This document shows, piece after piece, positions 65 through 46,109 of a stretch of DNA of 64,000 nucleotides. Within the stretch, counting starts at the first letter, position 1. Each line of letters begins with the position of its first letter. The stretch lies in the IMG/VR virus record IMGVR_UViG_2925939204_000001; one strand, given 5' to 3'. Origin of the DNA: a virus (taxonomy: Duplodnaviria; Heunggongvirae; Uroviricota; Caudoviricetes). A program made the translations under genes and the position numbers. Below the pieces are notes generated by a model. The model saw only the letters and a program-made list of their open reading frames with translations. It did no database searches and was not told the DNA's origin.

Positions 65-88
65 GCCCATCTTCGGGTGGGCTTTTTT
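65..88 (+). terminator. Rho-independent terminator-like hairpin
   Basis: GC stem GCCCATCTTCGGGTGGGC followed by a T run. Confidence 0.5.
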
Positions 89-548: not shown

Positions 549-625
549 GATGGTGTAGCTCAGTAGGATAGAGCAGCAGCCTTCTAAGCTGTCGGTCGGT
601 GGTTCGAATCCACCCACCATCGCCA
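549..625 (+). tRNA. tRNA-Arg (anticodon TCT)
   Basis: Cloverleaf readable by eye: acceptor GATGGTG/CACCATC, D arm TAGCTCAGTAGGATAGAGCA, anticodon loop CTTCTAA, T loop TTCGAAT, encoded CCA. Confidence 0.8.
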
Positions 626-630
626 ATTTA

Positions 631-717
631 GGGGAGTTAGTCCGTAGGGGTAGCGGGGTAGACTGTAAATCTACTGTCATTGCGACTCGGGTGGTTCGAC
701 TCCATCACTCCCCACCA
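631..717 (+). tRNA. tRNA-Tyr (anticodon GTA), type II with long variable arm
   Basis: Acceptor GGGGAGT/ACTCCCC, anticodon stem-loop GTAGA-CTGTAAA-TCTAC, ~15-nt variable arm, T loop TTCGACT, encoded CCA. Confidence 0.75.
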
Positions 718-721
718 AATT

Positions 722-797
722 GCCGGTTTAGCTCAGTTGGTAGAGCAGTCGCTTTGTAAGCGAATGGTCAGCGGTTCGATCCCGTTAACCGGCACCA
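722..797 (+). tRNA. tRNA-Thr (anticodon TGT)
   Basis: Acceptor GCCGGTT/AACCGGC, D arm TAGCTCAGTTGGTAGAGCA, anticodon loop TTTGTAA, T loop TTCGATC, encoded CCA. Confidence 0.8.
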
Positions 798-1252
798 ACA
801 CAACAGGTAAGAGCATTTGTAGAGTTCGACTCTCTACCGTGGGCTTTTTCCCGCGATGCGAGCCATAAATGCTCTTACCGTTGTGATGAAGTGCAGCTCT
901 TTGAAGCAACCAGAAGATAAGCATCTGGCTTCACAACATAAACCGCAGGAACGACCAATAAACGGTAGTCCGTATGGAGAACACCCCGTTGAGGAAGAGG
1001 CCTGGCCGGAACCGTAACCGGCACTACAACGTTGAGAACACTGGCGTAACGGGGTCATATCCCAATCTACGAATAAATGTTGCGTTGCAGCGTGACAACC
1101 AGTGTTCTCAACATTGTGGTGAATGCGCAGGCTGATGCGCGAAAGACATTGCAGCTATTGCGGAAAAGAGCTGTTCGGCGGGGCAATTAAACGCCCGTGA
1201 GAGTCTGAAATAACCGCAAGCCGGAGATCAGCACCGGTCGCCACAATAACGG

Positions 1253-1339
1253 GAGAGTAGGGAGCATGGTGCTCAAGCGGTCTTGAAAACCGTCCCATTG
1301 CGCAAGCGATGATGGTTCGATTCCATTACTCTCCGCCAG
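1253..1339 (+). tRNA. tRNA-Ser (anticodon TGA), type II; atypical D arm
   Basis: Acceptor GGAGAGT/ACTCTCC, anticodon stem-loop GCGGT-CTTGAAA-ACCGT, long variable arm, T arm GATGG-TTCGATT-CCATT, discriminator G, CCA; D stem imperfect. Confidence 0.55.
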
Positions 1340-1498
1340 TGCAACGTTAAGAGTATTTGGCTAATTAAGCGAATGCCGGAAGCAGAACCGGATCACCAAA
1401 TGCGTACAGGCGTCATCGCCGCCCAGCCAGCCAAGTGCTCTTACCATTGCGGTGAATGCGGCTAAGCGCACGCGGAACAGTTAAAACAATCCTCCTTA

Positions 1499-1822
1499 GT
1501 GGTTAAGTCAAACATCCCGGCGTTAATTGTTAACTGGTTAACGTCACCTGGAGGCACCAGGCACCGCAATCTAATAAAGTTTCAAGCAATGGAGTTTTTG
1601 TTGTCAGACTTCAGATATAGATGGTTGTGGAAGGAGAGCCTGTGCATAGTGCAGTTATTTCTTCCGCTATTTGTCTGCTTTGTCATGCTTCCTGAGCTGA
1701 AATACGCAATTTCAGACACTTTAAGCACTATCGTTACTTTTGTGTTTTATCTTTACTTTGATTACTTATTGAGCACTAAAATCAATGAATTATCCGAGGA
1801 AATTCAAGGTGGCTGTAAGTGA
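1499..1822 (+). CDS. hypothetical hydrophobic protein (107 aa)
   Basis: Complete ORF between tRNA genes; hydrophobic stretches; no recognisable motif. Confidence 0.3.
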   Translation: MVKSNIPALIVNWLTSPGGTRHRNLIKFQAMEFLLSDFRYRWLWKESLCIVQLFLPLFVCFVMLPELKYAISDTLSTIVTFVFYLYFDYLLSTKINELSEEIQGGCK

Positions 1823-1950
1823 TGAATTTTTGGGCGTTTGCCGATAAGAACCCTGGTTGGACATTTTTATTTTTGCTGGTGGTTGCATATGGGGTCGAGC
1901 AAGCGGCAAAAGCCTTACGCGGTTCTGGCAAAAAGCGTAAGCGGAATTAA
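1822..1950 (+). CDS. small membrane peptide (42 aa, MNFWAFADKNPGWTFLFLLVVAYGV...)
   Basis: ATG overlaps the stop of the upstream ORF; one predicted TM helix followed by a basic tail; below the ORF-track size cutoff. Confidence 0.3.
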   Translation: MNFWAFADKNPGWTFLFLLVVAYGVEQAAKALRGSGKKRKRN

Positions 1951-1959
1951 CAGTAATCT

Positions 1960-2035
1960 GGCCCTTTAGCTCAGTGGTTAGAGCTGGCGACTCATAATCG
2001 CACGGTCACCGGTTCAAGTCCGGTAGGGGCCACCA
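1960..2035 (+). tRNA. tRNA-Met or tRNA-Ile2 (anticodon CAT)
   Basis: Acceptor GGCCCTT/AGGGGCC, D arm TAGCTCAGTGGTTAGAGCT, anticodon loop CTCATAA, T loop TTCAAGT, CCA; differs from host elongator tRNA-Met. Confidence 0.8.
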
Positions 2036-2488
2036 TATTTGGTTGTAACACGGCGTCTGGCACATGCGTCGTTAGCGGTCTGGTGACGTTAAAGGGGTTA
2101 CCTTTTCCCCTAGCTCAGGCAACAAACCAGGTAGCCGGAATGTGCAAGCCCCGTTCATATGTCGGACCGAGGACTCACCATCCTGGCGATTCGGTGTGAC
2201 AGCCGGAAGAGTACGGCGCACAACAGGAAAAGGCGTTTAATTAACGCGAGCGCCGTTTCCGTTGTGGTAATTGCGGCTATGCGCTCGTGACGAAGCCATT
2301 TTCATTCATTGAGGTTCTGATAAGTGTCGTCGCCGGGCGTGGCTGACCTGGCAGGTGGAGGCACCACCGCCACAACTCCTTTCAATTCATCATATAGCCG
2401 CTCAGGCTGTAACCCTTAATTAATACGAAGTTTCGACATCTCTATCGGTTTAACCGAGAGATGGTCGCGCGTGTAAAAAGGAGACGTT

Positions 2489-3064
2489 ATGTTAATGGCG
2501 AACGATAACGCATATGCAGAAGAAGATCTCATTTTGAGTGACTTCATAGGGAAGCGGGAACGCTGGACCCAAAAGCGAGAGGAACTTTACGCCTCATTAG
2601 TTCGCAAAGGCGTCAATATCGAAACCGCACAGAGCGGCGATATGACAGTGGTAAGCGTTGGATTGCACGGTGTAAGCGTGTCAGCAATCAATCATGAGCC
2701 ATACGTTGCGTTATCCGAGTCAATGGTAAGGTTAGTTAAGTTCCTGAAGTACACAGAAGCGAATAATGTAATCATTGGCAAAAAGAATATCCCTTTTTCC
2801 TCGGCTTTTTACTGGATGATGAAAGGGCTTGATGCCCGGCGGACATCATGGCCTAAAGGGAGCTATATATCGATGTTCCGTGGCAGCATTGGCAGCAAAG
2901 AAAAGCTCTTCGAATTCTTGCCGGAAGAGGCATTCGATATTGTGGAAGGGTGCGATGTGATGGTGATGCCTCGCCTGGTAATGATGAATGGGGATTTACA
3001 GGCGCAGACAGACTGGTTTGCAACTGGTGTGGATATAATCGCGACTGACTGGGAGGCTTTCTGA
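2489..3064 (+). CDS. hypothetical protein (191 aa)
   Basis: Complete ORF with RBS-like AAAAAGGAGA upstream; translationally coupled to the next ORF. Confidence 0.55.
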   Translation: MLMANDNAYAEEDLILSDFIGKRERWTQKREELYASLVRKGVNIETAQSGDMTVVSVGLHGVSVSAINHEPYVALSESMVRLVKFLKYTEANNVIIGKKNIPFSSAFYWMMKGLDARRTSWPKGSYISMFRGSIGSKEKLFEFLPEEAFDIVEGCDVMVMPRLVMMNGDLQAQTDWFATGVDIIATDWEAF

Positions 3065-18984: not shown

Positions 18985-19856
18985 TTCGCCTCCTGCGGCG
19001 GTTCTGGTAGAGGCATCCAGTGGGTTACACCGCCAATTGGCTCATCGTCGTCGTACTCCAATGCGGCTATATAGAACCCGTCACGACGAGAATAAGAAAT
19101 CCCGGACATTACAATGCCATCCGAAACAACAATAATGTCACCCGTTTCTTTCGGCATTCGCTCACTACAGCTTATCCAACCATCCGGAGTTACCGGAGAG
19201 TTGCCCGATAGTGCATTCTGCTCCAGTGATGCTTTTACAAACCACGCTGCCTGAACTATAACGCCATGAATCCAGCGCAAATCAGCATCGCGATCTTTCT
19301 TTTTCATCTTTTCGCCACTTAAGGCCTTGCTTATGTGGCTGCGTACCAGGTCTTCATGTAATTCCTTCGCCTCCTCAATGGTGAAACCACCAGGCAGAAG
19401 AGCCGGAGTTACCGGAGAGCTGGTTGACGCTTCCGGGATTTCCCGAAAATTATTGGTTGACGAATCTTTATTTTCCCGAAAGTTTCCGGACTGAAGCATG
19501 GCTTCGCGGCAATCGTTCCAGCCTGTAGCGTATGCAGCCGCTTTGCTGCTGCCTTCAACTGGCGCATCCTGCCAATACATTTCTTCCGGCACTATCGGCG
19601 CTGGAGGGGCGGCAAATAGATATCCGCCAAAGTCAGGAAGCTCTCTAATGGCCTGTACGAATTTTTGTTTGCCTACGTCAACTCCTAATGGGTAATGAGC
19701 TATAATCTTTGCCACCGGCTCTGCTGCCAGTGATGCCAGAGCAATTCGTGCCAGTTCTTCCGCTTCTTCTGCTGGCAGTACAACGTTGCTACCCGGTCCG
19801 TATGTTTCGCGCCACTGCTTGATTGTCAGTAGTCGATCTTTGGCAATAGTGGTCAT
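18981..19856 (-). CDS. hypothetical protein with DUF551-like C-terminus (291 aa)
   Basis: C-terminal ...WISCSERMPKE...HWMPLPEPP pattern; N-terminal region similar to the N-terminus of 21139..21591. Confidence 0.5.
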   Translation of the reverse strand: MTTIAKDRLLTIKQWRETYGPGSNVVLPAEEAEELARIALASLAAEPVAKIIAHYPLGVDVGKQKFVQAIRELPDFGGYLFAAPPAPIVPEEMYWQDAPVEGSSKAAAYATGWNDCREAMLQSGNFRENKDSSTNNFREIPEASTSSPVTPALLPGGFTIEEAKELHEDLVRSHISKALSGEKMKKKDRDADLRWIHGVIVQAAWFVKASLEQNALSGNSPVTPDGWISCSERMPKETGDIIVVSDGIVMSGISYSRRDGFYIAALEYDDDEPIGGVTHWMPLPEPPQEAK

Positions 19857-44447: not shown

Positions 44448-46109
44448 TTAACCTAACTTCGCCCAGGTATCACGCAGCCCAACGGTGCGGTTAAATACCG
44501 GTTTTTCCGCCGTAGAATGGCGGCTGTCGAGGCAGAAATAACCTTCACGCTCAAACTGGAATGCTTTACCCGCTACCGCTTCTTTCAGCGACGGTTCAGC
44601 AAAACCCTGTTTGATCACCAGCGATTCCGGGTTAATCACCGACAGGAAATCATCCGCAGCACCTGGGTTCGGCACGCTGAACAGACGATCGTACAGGCGG
44701 ATTTCAACCGGCAGCGCATGTGCCGCGCTCACCCAGTGAATAACGCCTTTCACTTTACGACCATCTGCCGGATCTTTGCTTAAGGTGTCGGCGTCATAAG
44801 TACAGAAGATGGTGGTGATATTGCCTTCGGCATCTTTCTCCACGCGTTCAGCCTTAATGACGTAAGCATTACGCAGACGCACTTCTTTACCCAGCACCAG
44901 ACGTTTGTACTGCTTGTTAGCTTCTTCGCGGAAATCGGCGCGGTCGATCCAAATCTCACCGCTAAACGGCACCTGACGGCTACCCATTTCCGGTTTGTTT
45001 GGATGGTTCGGCATGGTGACCATTTCGCCTTCGCCCTGGTAGTTTTCGATAACCAGTTTCACCGGATCGATAACCGCCATTGCGCGCGGCGCATTTTCGT
45101 TGAGATCTTCACGGATGCAGGATTCCAGCGACGCCATCTCAATGGTGTTGTCCTGCTTGGTCACGCCGATGCGTTTGCAGAACTCACGAATAGAAGCCGC
45201 AGTGTAACCACGACGACGCAGACCGGAAATGGTCGGCATACGCGGGTCATCCCAGCCTTCAACGTGCTTGTCGGTCACCAGCAGGTTCAGCTTACGCTTG
45301 GACATCACAGTGTATTCCAGATTCAGGCGCGAAAATTCGTACTGGCGCGGGTGAACAGGAATGGTGATGTTGTCCAGTACCCAGTCATACAGACGACGGT
45401 TGTCCTGGAACTCAAGCGTACACAGAGAGTGCGTAATACCTTCCAGCGCATCGCTGATGCAGTGGGTGAAGTCGTACATCGGGTAGATGCACCACTTGTT
45501 GCCAGTCTGGTGATGTTCAGCAAACTTAATGCGGTACAGCACCGGGTCGCGCATCACGATAAACGGCGAAGCCATGTCGATTTTCGCACGCAGGCAGGCT
45601 TTACCTTCTTCAAAACCACCGGCACGCATTTTTTCGAACAGCGCCAGGTTCTCTTCAACGCTGCGGTCGCGGTACGGGCTGTTTTTACCCGGCTGCGTCA
45701 GGGTGCCGCGGTATTCGCGGATCTGTTCCGGCGTCAGTTCGTCAACATACGCCAGGCCTTTGTTGATCAGTTCAACAGCATAGGCATGGAGTTTGTCAAA
45801 ATAATCGGAGGAGTAACGGATGTTGCCAGACCAGTGAAAACCTAACCATTCAACGTCGTTTTTAATCGACTCGACGTACTCGATATCTTCTTTTACCGGG
45901 TTAGTGTCGTCGAAACGCAGGTTGCACTGGCCTTTATAGTCCTGGGCGATCCCGAAGTTCAGGCAGATAGATTTCGCATGACCAATATGCAGATAGCCAT
46001 TCGGTTCCGGCGGGAAACGGGTATGTACTGTGGTGTGCTTACCACTGGCCAGATCTTCATCGATGATCTGACGAATAAAGTTAGTCGGGCGGGCTTCTGC
46101 CTCACTCAT
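44448..46109 (-). CDS. glnS: glutaminyl-tRNA synthetase
   Basis: 553 aa with class I HIGH ([11 protein letters not shown]) and KMSKS (VMSKR) motifs; full-length match to E. coli GlnRS as I recall it. Confidence 0.95.

Follow-up and report, generated by a model that had tools for sequence, protein, structure and literature searches.

Covarying hairpins interspersed with the tRNA genes of a D6/P1-like plasmid-prophage as likely RNase III processing signals

The 64,000-nucleotide stretch of viral DNA analysed here (IMG/VR record IMGVR_UViG_2925939204_000001; hereafter the window) belongs to a D6/P1-like plasmid-prophage, and public databases already contain plasmids that are 99.6% identical to it across positions 1-2500, with roughly 1,100 related plasmids in all. 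ARAGORN predicts five tRNA genes near its start, all on the + strand: tRNA-Arg (anticodon TCT, 549-625; 72.1 bits with the Rfam tRNA model), tRNA-Tyr (GTA, with a long variable arm, 631-717; 41.9 bits), tRNA-Thr (TGT, 722-797; 67.2 bits), tRNA-Ser (TGA, with a long variable arm and a short D loop, 1252-1338), and a tRNA with a CAT anticodon, called Met/Ile-cat by ARAGORN (1960-2035; 64.7 bits). These are exactly the five genes named in a preliminary description of the locus; ARAGORN rejects neither the Ser nor the Tyr call, and the Arg, Tyr, Thr, and CAT genes exceed the gathering score of the Rfam tRNA model (29 bits). The best Rfam match of tRNA-Ser is to the clan-mate tRNA-Sec model, at 43.5 bits, which is under that model's gathering score of 47. 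tRNA-Ser(TGA) is also called by ARAGORN in D6 and P7, being annotated in the D6 but not in the P7 record, and the rV5-like phage phita32 has an annotated tRNA-Ser at a position matching that of the window gene.

The tRNA content of the locus differs among close relatives. Window positions 1949-2220, which hold the CAT tRNA, are 91% identical to a P1 stretch containing trnI, and on sequence grounds the CAT tRNA is the orthologue of trnI, which the P1 record gives as tRNA-Ile2 with 89% identity to Escherichia coli ileX. P1 has three tRNAs (Asn, Thr, and CAT), the number given for it in the preliminary description; where P1 and D6 have Asn-Thr, the window has Arg-Tyr-Thr. The tRNA-Arg gene is identical to the tRNA-Asn(GTT) at the orthologous position in D6 and CMS-2020a in its acceptor stem, T arm, and flanks, and differs from it in the anticodon arm and D loop. 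D6 and P1 lack tRNA-Tyr, and the tRNAs that flank its place meet there at a CCA-A junction. Codon usage accounts for the Arg, Ile2, Thr, and Ser tRNAs, but not for Tyr; a Tad2-like anti-defence gene adjoins the tRNA locus. A role of the tRNAs against tRNA-cleaving host defences, raised in the preliminary description, is conceivable. A literature search on ileZ/argN/argO gave no result.

Five hairpin units, all on the + strand, are interspersed with these genes. U0 (262-358; inverted repeat I1), the most diverged copy, lies upstream of the tRNA block. U1 (799-896) comprises a stem (799-885) and a tail, with a T-arm-like hairpin in its interior, U2 (1022-1144) a stem (1022-1121) and the tail GGTGAATGCGCAGGCTGATGCGC, U3 (1340-1473) a stem (1340-1454) and a tail, its interior carrying a 65-nt module common to lambda, and U4 (2219-2288) a stem (2219-2268) and the tail GGTAATTGCGGCTATGCGC. 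The predicted stems measure approximately 24 (U0), 21 (U1), 26 (U2), 21 (U3), and 18 bp (U4), and are broken by nothing beyond single bulges or 1x1 mismatches. Compared with dinucleotide shuffles, the folds are stable, with values of -48.3 kcal/mol (z = -5.3) for U0, -42.0 (z = -7.8) for U1, -47.9 (z = -8.3) for U2, -40.4 (z = -3.5) for U3, and -23.1 (z = -5.5) for U4. A covariance model, R1, scores the units at 31.5 (U0, + strand), 61.3 (U1), 66.5 (U2), 42.3 (U3), and 60.2 bits (U4), values that follow by construction, since its seed took in four of the five window units and, for the remaining one, a locus identical to it in sequence; independent support for family membership comes from pattern searches, a repeat finder, and matches outside the seed in Qin and in an rV5-like phage. 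No further units were found in the rest of the 64 kb window.

The preliminary description had noted a motif of ~25 nt recurring four times, each copy preceded by a long inverted repeat. The motif is a real repeat, but the inverted repeat does not precede it; rather, the motif consists of the inverted repeat's own 3' arm and a short tail. The sequence GCTCTTACCRTTGYGGTGAA occurs with up to 3 mismatches at 871-890, 1104-1123, and 1437-1456, against a chance expectation of 0.02, and the fourth copy (2249-2287; direct-repeat family D1) is 74% identical to the reference copy. All four copies are confirmed, and U0, lying ahead of the tRNAs, brings the number of units to five.

Several smaller elements accompany the units. 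A small hairpin, GCCGGA-N-CCGGC (527-550, + strand; direct-repeat family D3), precedes units or tRNAs and recurs at 1005-1028, 1375-1398, and 2202-2225; the tRNA block lies between its first copy and the U1 5' arm. An STnc100-like structured leader (1448-1568, + strand) starts in the U3 tail and precedes a small ORF. It matches Rfam RF02076 at 39.4 bits, where the gathering score is 47, with the alignment confined to model positions 31-147 of 206, and so falls short of a full STnc100 small RNA. The repeat tail, made up of GGTGAATGCG and a small hairpin, and the next 100 nt after U3 align with the STnc100/PasD family, a marker of lambdoid prophage regions (bioRxiv 10.64898/2026.05.13.724894); the differences are that the long hairpin lies outside the model and that the window element is a leader ahead of ORFs. 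As read from the sequence, an STnc100-like element also lies between dicF and dicB in the K-12 Qin prophage; phage Evi has one between DicF and kil, and in P1 and D6 one stands ahead of tciA. A second, weaker leader, recognised by sequence reading and folding (GTTGTGG ... GGAGGCACCACCGCCACAAC; 2262-2376, + strand), follows U4 and precedes the Tad2-like ORF; it has no Rfam match, and positions 2248-2376 give blastn matches among the viral loci compared.

Upstream, a terminator scan of the equivalent locus (L128:1065-1082) identifies an intrinsic terminator-like hairpin with a T run at 65-82 (+ strand), in the part of the locus annotated in P1 as a dicF-like region, and no consensus promoter was found between this hairpin and the tRNAs. 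The dicF-like region was rejected as DicF, since the RF00039 model hits neither the window (E up to 1) nor the loci of P1 and D6 (E up to 0.1). Two small hydrophobic ORFs from the ORF list, 1589-1822 (77 aa) and 1819-1950 (43 aa), both on the + strand and without a Pfam match, occupy the site (1589-1950) at which P1 and D6 have tciA/B/C; relatives carry as cargo at this site either tciABC or an ORF whose annotation is SPFH-domain protein or serine protease.

The window shares with the P1, P7, and D6 tRNA loci its operon position and the order of unit, tRNA block, units, tRNA-Ser (present or absent), unit, cargo ORFs, and CAT tRNA. It lacks tciA, unlike P1 and D6, and lacks ban downstream, like D6. 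The preliminary description would have been undermined had the repeats been absent from related genomes, but units are found in P1, P7, D6, RCS47, and SJ46: U0 lies at the same place in all five, and U4 is also found in D6. Between P1 and the window the U3 tail is common while the 5' arms and interiors differ, and tRNA-Ser is present or absent there. A published account of D6-like plasmids gives four tRNAs and says nothing of repeats. On the explanation of the hairpins preferred below, the P1 ORF plp, which overlaps them in the antisense direction, is unlikely to be a gene.

The units belong to a wider hairpin family, in which a conserved stem of 19-25 bp with a bulged A, its arms ending in CAYAAC / GUUGYG, encloses a variable interior. 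The interiors are unrelated in sequence, range from 9 to 176 nt, and fall into at least 41 unrelated families. Carriers comprise P1, P7, D6, rV5-like phages, lambda, and at least 120 viral contigs, and matches outside the R1 seed include a unit in the K-12 Qin prophage and a copy in an rV5-like phage. The usual context of a unit is 3' of the antiterminator Q and 5' of the holin; the lambda unit directly follows tR'. Window positions 1363-1427, in the U3 interior, share 98.5% identity with lambda 44866-44930. An rV5-like phage has this module too, there closed by another, complementary stem. The U2 3' arm and tail have matches at 41 lambdoid loci. No Rfam family covers the hairpins in the window, the lambda Q-S region, 18 lambdoid loci, P1, or D6, no RefSeq E. 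coli annotation lies beneath the hairpin matches, and the arm sequences were found neither in the literature searched nor in the text of the Pas small-RNA preprint. The family is a conserved element, unannotated in the sources examined, in lambda, P1, and many prophages. Its units are not specific to tRNA loci: just 22 of 117 lie within 1.5 kb of a tRNA (the other 95 do not), and no tRNA was found in the 1.8 kb scanned around the lambda unit.

The hairpin structure is under selection. Across 40 units 93.9% of cells pair, compared with at most 66.5% in slid controls, and 9 of 19 pairs have changes on both sides, a number reached by none of 500 shuffles. The AT-rich copy in an rV5-like phage has other bases with pairing kept. 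A count over 64 distinct stems gives 1042 Watson-Crick, 81 G.U, and 15 A.C cells; the excess of G.U over A.C agrees with folding of the + strand, its ratio being somewhat inflated because the strand picked by the model is the better-pairing one. With R1, all five window units score highest on the tRNA strand, and in the family as a whole the strand of the unit is identical to that of the tRNA in 22 of the 22 units within 1.5 kb of one; ~77% of flanking ORFs are co-oriented. tRNA ends adjoin the arms, either 1 nt ahead of the 5' arm, as does the CCA end of tRNA-Thr at U1, or at the end of the 3' arm.

These properties bear on whether the units act solely as DNA-level module boundaries at which phages exchange cassettes, either through homology held in common or as sites for some recombinase, with no RNA function. 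Homology between relatives stops sharply at the arm ends, as module boundaries would predict, and interiors and tails occur in varying combinations: lambdoid units combine one interior with different tails and one tail with different interiors, the cargo between units differs among P1, P7, D6, RCS47, SJ46, and the window, and the many unrelated interior families fit the same picture. However, an inverted repeat is needless for simple homology, and a purely DNA-level role leaves unexplained the compensatory changes that keep pairing in diverged copies (including the AT-rich rV5-like copy), the 81 to 15 preponderance of G.U over A.C, and unit orientation that always follows the tRNAs; we regard it as unlikely that such boundaries are the whole explanation. 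A boundary role is compatible with an RNA role, and our preferred explanation takes it as a side effect.

Hairpins that lie between cassettes, with extrahelical bases and a variable interior, also recall integron attC sites, here for tRNA cassettes, or transcription terminators/attenuators. Either identity appears highly improbable. The arm ends, (C)ACACAAC / GTTGTGG, break the attC core sites RYYYAAC / GTTRRRY, and neither in the window nor in lambda is there an integrase gene next to the units; the attC reading was rejected on both counts. The stems continue into GGTGAATGCG and not into a T run, and the terminator scan flags only the unrelated hairpin at 65-82 and, weakly, the apical stem of the unit equivalent to U4. 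The intrinsic terminator reading, which calls for a G+C-rich stem followed by a T run, was likewise rejected.

The preliminary description had offered processing signals, degenerate tRNA remnants, or small RNAs as possible identities, and had pointed to a T-arm-like hairpin in one unit. That hairpin is present in U1 (GTAGAG-TTCGACT-CTCTAC, 819-837), and T-arm-like hairpins occur in nine of 74 distinct units, all on the + strand, with none on the - strand and 0.03 per shuffle round; in several units the element stacks on the conserved stem, resembling a T arm on an acceptor stem. Decay of former members of the tRNA cluster, or other tRNA-like leftovers, might account for such elements in U1 and the eight other units. 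Yet 88% of distinct units have no T-arm-like element, ARAGORN and Rfam (E up to 1) report the window units as no tRNA, the conserved part is the stem, which is unlike any tRNA arm, and most of the family has no tRNA within 1.5 kb, the lambda unit having none in the 1.8 kb scanned, all of which make a tRNA origin very unlikely.

The units might instead give rise to small RNAs, as their precursors or scaffolds, in which the stem would serve as a clamp and the loop as a fast-evolving regulatory small RNA, sponge, or tRNA-like decoy. The hypervariable interiors and the + strand bias of the T-arm-like hairpins would fit, as would the overlap of the tail with the STnc100-like element and the location of units 3' of pR', a known site of prophage small RNAs (PMC4104026; bioRxiv 10.64898/2026.05.13.724894). 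However, the interiors are little structured (mean fold z of -0.43, near the value of their reverse complements), some units have almost no interior (e.g. U4, a 9-nt case), a terminator after the unit is missing in most units, and no Rfam small-RNA family matches them, and we consider a precursor or scaffold function unlikely. Interiors as structured cargo RNA were rejected, since they are no more structured than shuffles.

An experimental clue to what the stems may do comes from the K-12 Qin prophage, which has a unit between ydfC and dicF (locus L130, positions L130:19170-19294). This non-seed copy is a diverged, weak match to R1 (24.4 bits, E = 7e-6) with its 3' arm at L130:19239-19258. One preprint describes a 190-nt DicF species that is absent without RNase III, with a 5' end between positions 813 and 814 (bioRxiv 10.1101/2023.04.14.536235, citing Faubladier 1990). 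By computation, a 190-nt RNA stopping at the terminator T run (L130:19440) starts at 19251, and adding 813 to the predicted dicBp start (TTGACC-17-TAATCT, ~L130:18438) also gives 19251. By our own coordinates, the RNase III-dependent 5' end of DicF thus maps inside the 3' arm of the Qin unit, a position calculated from the length reported for the RNA and from a transcription start that is itself a prediction. One genome-wide RNase III map has only a weak site in the dicF-dicB leader (26 reads).

The Qin DicF processing site resembles the window units in its stem base (CAYAAC ... GUUGUG), bulge, AAG-N-GC / GC-N-CUU core, variable loop, position in a phage early operon, and an STnc100-like leader further downstream. 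It differs in having no adjoining tRNA, and the RNA released is the precursor of the small RNA DicF. The dicBF literature examined contains no description of the Qin unit as a member of a repeat family. Phage Evi has a true DicF (76.4 bits) and an STnc100-like leader but no R1 hairpin, so DicF and the hairpin need not occur together. The stems of 18-26 bp are near the ~22 bp that an RNase III dimer accommodates, and agree with the near-continuous duplex of two helical turns or so (~20-22 bp) expected of an RNase III site (PMC6212723). Having a K-12 copy where, by these coordinates, a mapped RNase III cut falls suggests that the repeats are most likely RNA processing signals, and not junk or dead tRNAs; among the identities proposed earlier, processing signals are favoured by the covarying hairpins, their placement on the tRNA strand, and the RNase III-dependent end in Qin.

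Our preferred explanation, which we consider reasonably probable, is that the hairpins are RNase III processing hairpins which separate tRNA, leader, and mRNA modules, and which also serve as joints for cassette exchange. From the sequences we infer that the window copies are transcribed, cut by RNase III, and of consequence for tRNA maturation. The five tRNAs and five hairpins probably lie on one + strand polycistronic transcript, and the tRNA-hairpin operon would be the counterpart of the C1-controlled ban operon of P1; a search of the D6 locus for the P1 C1 operator consensus gave no match at up to 3 mismatches. Each hairpin would present a double-stranded RNA stem of ~18-26 bp of conserved sequence, with a bulged A and a variable loop, and host RNase III would cut the stem, parting the tRNA blocks from one another and from downstream leaders and mRNAs. 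Such a cut would leave short single-stranded tRNA trailers that could be trimmed by 3' exonucleases, and 5'-monophosphate ends on the downstream pieces, with RNase P expected to make the tRNA 5' ends. At the DNA level, the same hairpins may provide stretches of homology for swapping tRNA, small-RNA, and cargo cassettes, a role proposed because many phages with little else in common share the conserved stem sequence. Weighing against the processing explanation, the stem sequence is conserved beyond what RNase III needs, which suggests a further sequence-specific partner, or upkeep by recombination; so do the weakness of the Qin match and the terminator-like hairpin at 65-82, with no consensus promoter found between it and the tRNAs.

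The proposed arrangement has parallels in known systems. The phage T7 RNase III sites R0.3, R0.5, R1, R1.1, and R1.3 lie between the early genes and split one long transcript. By description they are, like the window units, repeated hairpins with related sequences and internal loops that cut a phage transcript into functional RNAs; in contrast, they part protein-coding messages and are without a hypervariable interior. In bacterial rRNA operons with spacer tRNAs, RNase III acting on long stems and RNase P together dissect a mixed transcript; there the stems form from sequences flanking a whole rRNA, whereas in the window units the stem closes a short, mostly unconstrained loop. The phage T4 tRNA gene cluster contains the stable RNAs species 1 and 2, which by description are similar: structured RNAs other than tRNAs, transcribed and processed together with the phage tRNAs.

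A more ambitious proposal, and one we think rather improbable, is that the hairpins constitute a phage-wide RNA cassette system whose excised loops are effectors traded together with tRNA genes in a counter-defence island. RNase III would then excise the variable loops as discrete small RNAs, and the loops, including the tRNA-like T-arm modules, would evolve fast and act either on tRNA-targeting enzymes, as decoys, or on host small RNAs, as sponges. Through recombination at the conserved stems, phages would exchange effectors and tRNA genes, and the tRNAs together with the Tad2-like gene would form an RNA-and-protein counter-defence island.

If the preferred explanation of RNase III processing hairpins that double as joints for cassette exchange is correct, it would give a function to a conserved element in the stretch after pR', a site of insertion for toxin genes, tRNAs, and small RNAs. 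It would account for the release, from a single transcript, of phage tRNAs that lie among leaders and mRNAs, and would show, with cassettes bounded by conserved stems, why tRNA repertoires vary between close relatives.

The ~25-nt motif that the preliminary description placed between the tRNAs is a real repeat, but it forms the 3′ arm plus tail of a long hairpin, and we found five such hairpins where four repeats had been counted: U0 (262–358), U1 (799–885), U2 (1022–1121), U3 (1340–1454) and U4 (2219–2268). Their predicted stems are 18–26 bp long, with fold z-scores of −3.5 to −8.3. A covariance model built from the hairpin family found U0–U4 and no other convincing match in the 64 kb; because its seed included four of these units and a locus identical in sequence to the fifth, the window unit scores follow by construction. 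The common stem, CACAAC-A-GGTAAGAGCATTG ... CAGTGCTCTT(T/A)CCGTTGTG, has a bulged A, a frequent U·U mismatch and a conserved U·G pair; in many units the tail GGTGAATGCGCAGGCTGATGCGC comes next. A different, small hairpin, GCCGGA-N-CCGG(C), occurs four times (527–550, 1005–1028, 1375–1398 and 2202–2225), each copy shortly 5′ of a hairpin unit or tRNA. The P1 locus (L001) contains the ORFs plp and upl (L001:2118–2687); the window counterpart of plp (771–1145, − strand), antisense to the tRNA-Thr 3′ end and to U1 and U2, carries an in-frame stop and an indel. Judged from sequence, plp is probably not a gene, and perhaps neither is upl.

Across 40 units, 93.9% of cells were paired and 9 of 19 pairs had changed on both sides, a level reached by no shuffle; a control with slid registers gave at most 66.5% pairing. 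The 64 distinct stems (from 122 units) comprised 1042 Watson-Crick, 81 G·U and 15 A·C cells. Interiors range from 9 to 176 nt, the 72 distinct ones group into 41 or more unrelated families, and no notable structure was seen in them (mean z = −0.43).

The units recur in related genomes, with four in P1, five in D6, four in P7, five in RCS47 and three in SJ46, and an exact IMG/VR search with 15 nt of the 5′ arm returned at least 120 contigs, mostly of ~40 kb. At loci with nameable flanking genes, units lie 3′ of the antiterminator Q gene and 5′ of the holin gene, an interval known to harbor morons and small RNAs after pR′ (PMC4104026). In lambda, the same hairpin directly follows the tR′ terminator (lambda 44788–44864) and precedes 65 nt (lambda 44866–44930) that are 98.5% identical to the U3 loop (window 1363–1427). 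This non-coding module (AATTAAGCGAATGCCGGAAGCAGAACCGGATCACC...) is also present 3′ of tRNA-Ser in rV5-like phages, enclosed there by a different complementary stem; in an rV5-like lytic phage, an AT-rich unit copy sits between tRNA-Tyr and tRNA-Ser. No Rfam family matched the units of the window, lambda, 18 lambdoid loci, or the P1 and D6 loci, no RefSeq annotation was present at the E. coli copies, and none of the papers searched contained the arm sequences. The family is one of widespread hairpins without an Rfam match, and without annotation where checked.

All 22 units with a tRNA within 1.5 kb lie on the strand of that tRNA, with the tRNA CCA end 1 nt 5′ of the 5′ arm, or the tRNA 5′ end at the 3′-arm end. 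The element is not confined to tRNA loci, as just these 22 of the 117 units have a tRNA at that distance. A T-arm-like hairpin (G-TTCRANN-C, stem of at least 4 bp) adjoins either arm in a real minority of units, namely 9 of 74 distinct units on the + strand and none on the − strand (shuffles, 0.03 per round), and is too rare for the family to consist of degenerate tRNA remnants. An unannotated stretch of the rV5-like phage phita32 (L131:2966–3062), between tRNA-Ser and tRNA-Thr, combines a 7-bp acceptor-like stem (GCTAGGT/ACCTAGC) with a T arm (GGTGGTTCGATTCCATC) and a D-arm-like hairpin, but its anticodon region is odd. Window stretches 92–189, 1205–1250 and 2127–2237 are shared, as non-coding sequence, with 18, 11 and 13 fetched lambdoid loci, respectively, and 76–181 weakly matches the permuted tmRNA model, with a score of 24 bits (E = 0.04) that lies far under gathering.

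The proposed five-tRNA set is upheld by ARAGORN, including the Ser and Tyr calls: tRNA-Arg-tct (549–625), tRNA-Tyr-gta (631–717), tRNA-Thr-tgt (722–797), tRNA-Ser-tga (1252–1338) and tRNA-Met/Ile-cat (1960–2035), all on the + strand. Four of the five score well over threshold with the Rfam tRNA model; the tRNA-Ser gene appears under tRNA-Sec, a clan-mate model, with 43.5 bits where that model asks for 47. ARAGORN finds the same tRNA-Ser in D6 and P7, and the D6 record annotates it, noting that tRNAscan-SE did not call its amino acid. The CAT tRNA is, by sequence, the orthologue of P1 trnI (tRNA-Ile2, 89% identical to ileX in the P1 record), the surrounding stretch (1949–2220) being 91% identical to that of P1 with trnI. 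In 48 long window ORFs, AGA, AGG, AUA, ACA and UCA occur at 6.3, 6.4, 10.1, 13.8 and 12.6 per thousand codons, which is roughly two- to fivefold E. coli usage, and codon supply therefore explains the Arg, Ile2, Thr and Ser tRNAs. It does not explain tRNA-Tyr, because UAU and UAC are not enriched in these ORFs.

The tRNA block differs among P1/D6-like relatives (Asn-Thr, Arg-Tyr-Thr or Asn-Tyr-Thr), and the window set is an already known type of variation among these elements. The tRNA-Arg(TCT) occupies the position orthologous to tRNA-Asn(GTT) of D6 (L002:1549–1624) and CMS-2020a (L129:2502–2576). Acceptor stem and flanks are identical, and the T arm equals that of CMS-2020a; the differences lie in the 17-nt anticodon arm and the D loop, which in tRNA-Arg(TCT) reads GGA, giving A20, the principal identity element for ArgRS. 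The pattern suggests a tRNA identity switch through anticodon-arm replacement. In the D6 record (NC_050154.1), the three listed tRNAs are on the other strand from that called by ARAGORN, and a CAT tRNA (L002:3240–3315) is missing; the P7 record (AF503408.1) lacks the tRNA-Ser (L125:2595–2681).

The first 3.6 kb of the window match D6 (95.8% identity over 86%) and, piecewise, P1 and P7, while 1–2500 is 99.6% identical to E. coli and Salmonella plasmids. The P1 counterpart is the beginning of the ban operon, with C1-controlled promoters and the order tRNA-Asn, tRNA-Thr, tciABC, tRNA-Ile2, ban (P1 record); other genes hold the ban position in D6 and the window. An intrinsic terminator-like site (65–82) lies 5′ of the entire tRNA cluster, and a scan of the equivalent locus found no consensus promoter between it and the tRNAs. 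The P1 record names this stretch dicF-like; the DicF model has no match there. Directly 3′ of the last hairpin and leader, an ORF (2489–3064, + strand; D6 orf6) carries a Tad2-like Thoeris anti-defence domain (PF11195; E = 1e-9; 39.1 bits, cutoff 25), so the tRNA locus adjoins a probable counter-defence gene.

A diverged unit lies between ydfC and dicF in the E. coli K-12 Qin prophage (L130:19170–19294, 24.4 bits, E = 7e-6) and folds as a hairpin (z = −3.3). Published work shows that a 190-nt DicF species is RNase III-dependent, with its 5′ end mapped between transcript positions 813 and 814, and that the 53-nt form subsequently needs RNase E (Faubladier et al., 1990, as cited in bioRxiv 10.1101/2023.04.14.536235). 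A 190-nt RNA whose 3′ end lies at the terminator T run (L130:19440) would start at 19251; the predicted start TTGACC-17-TAATCT (~L130:18438) plus 813 likewise gives 19251, a cleavage coordinate derived here from the predicted start and the reported RNA length, and the 3′ arm of the unit spans 19239–19258. The same STnc100-like leader lies 3′ of U3 in the window and 3′ of dicF in Qin, where one RNA-seq survey reports a weak RNase III-sensitive position in it. A second weak unit (L130:11141–11228, − strand, 20.9 bits, E = 7e-5), between cspB and essQ, occupies the Qin late-leader position.

The window stems are probably RNase III substrates in a polycistronic transcript, and we infer that the window copies are cleaved. 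Cleavage would detach tRNA blocks from adjacent modules, leave short trailers that exonucleases could trim, and give downstream leaders 5′-monophosphate ends; the early RNase III sites of T7 and rRNA operons that contain spacer tRNAs follow the same logic. The arms are also where homology among relatives breaks. At U3, P1 and the window have the tail in common and differ in 5′ arms and interiors, with no tRNA-Ser there in P1; in lambdoid units, one interior can be joined to different tails and one tail to different interiors; and the stretches between units hold variable cargo, namely tciABC, small ORFs, or an ORF that carries the annotation SPFH-domain protein or serine protease. Among the options raised in the preliminary description, that of processing signals fares best: we favor reading the repeats as RNase III-type processing signals that double as recombination joints.
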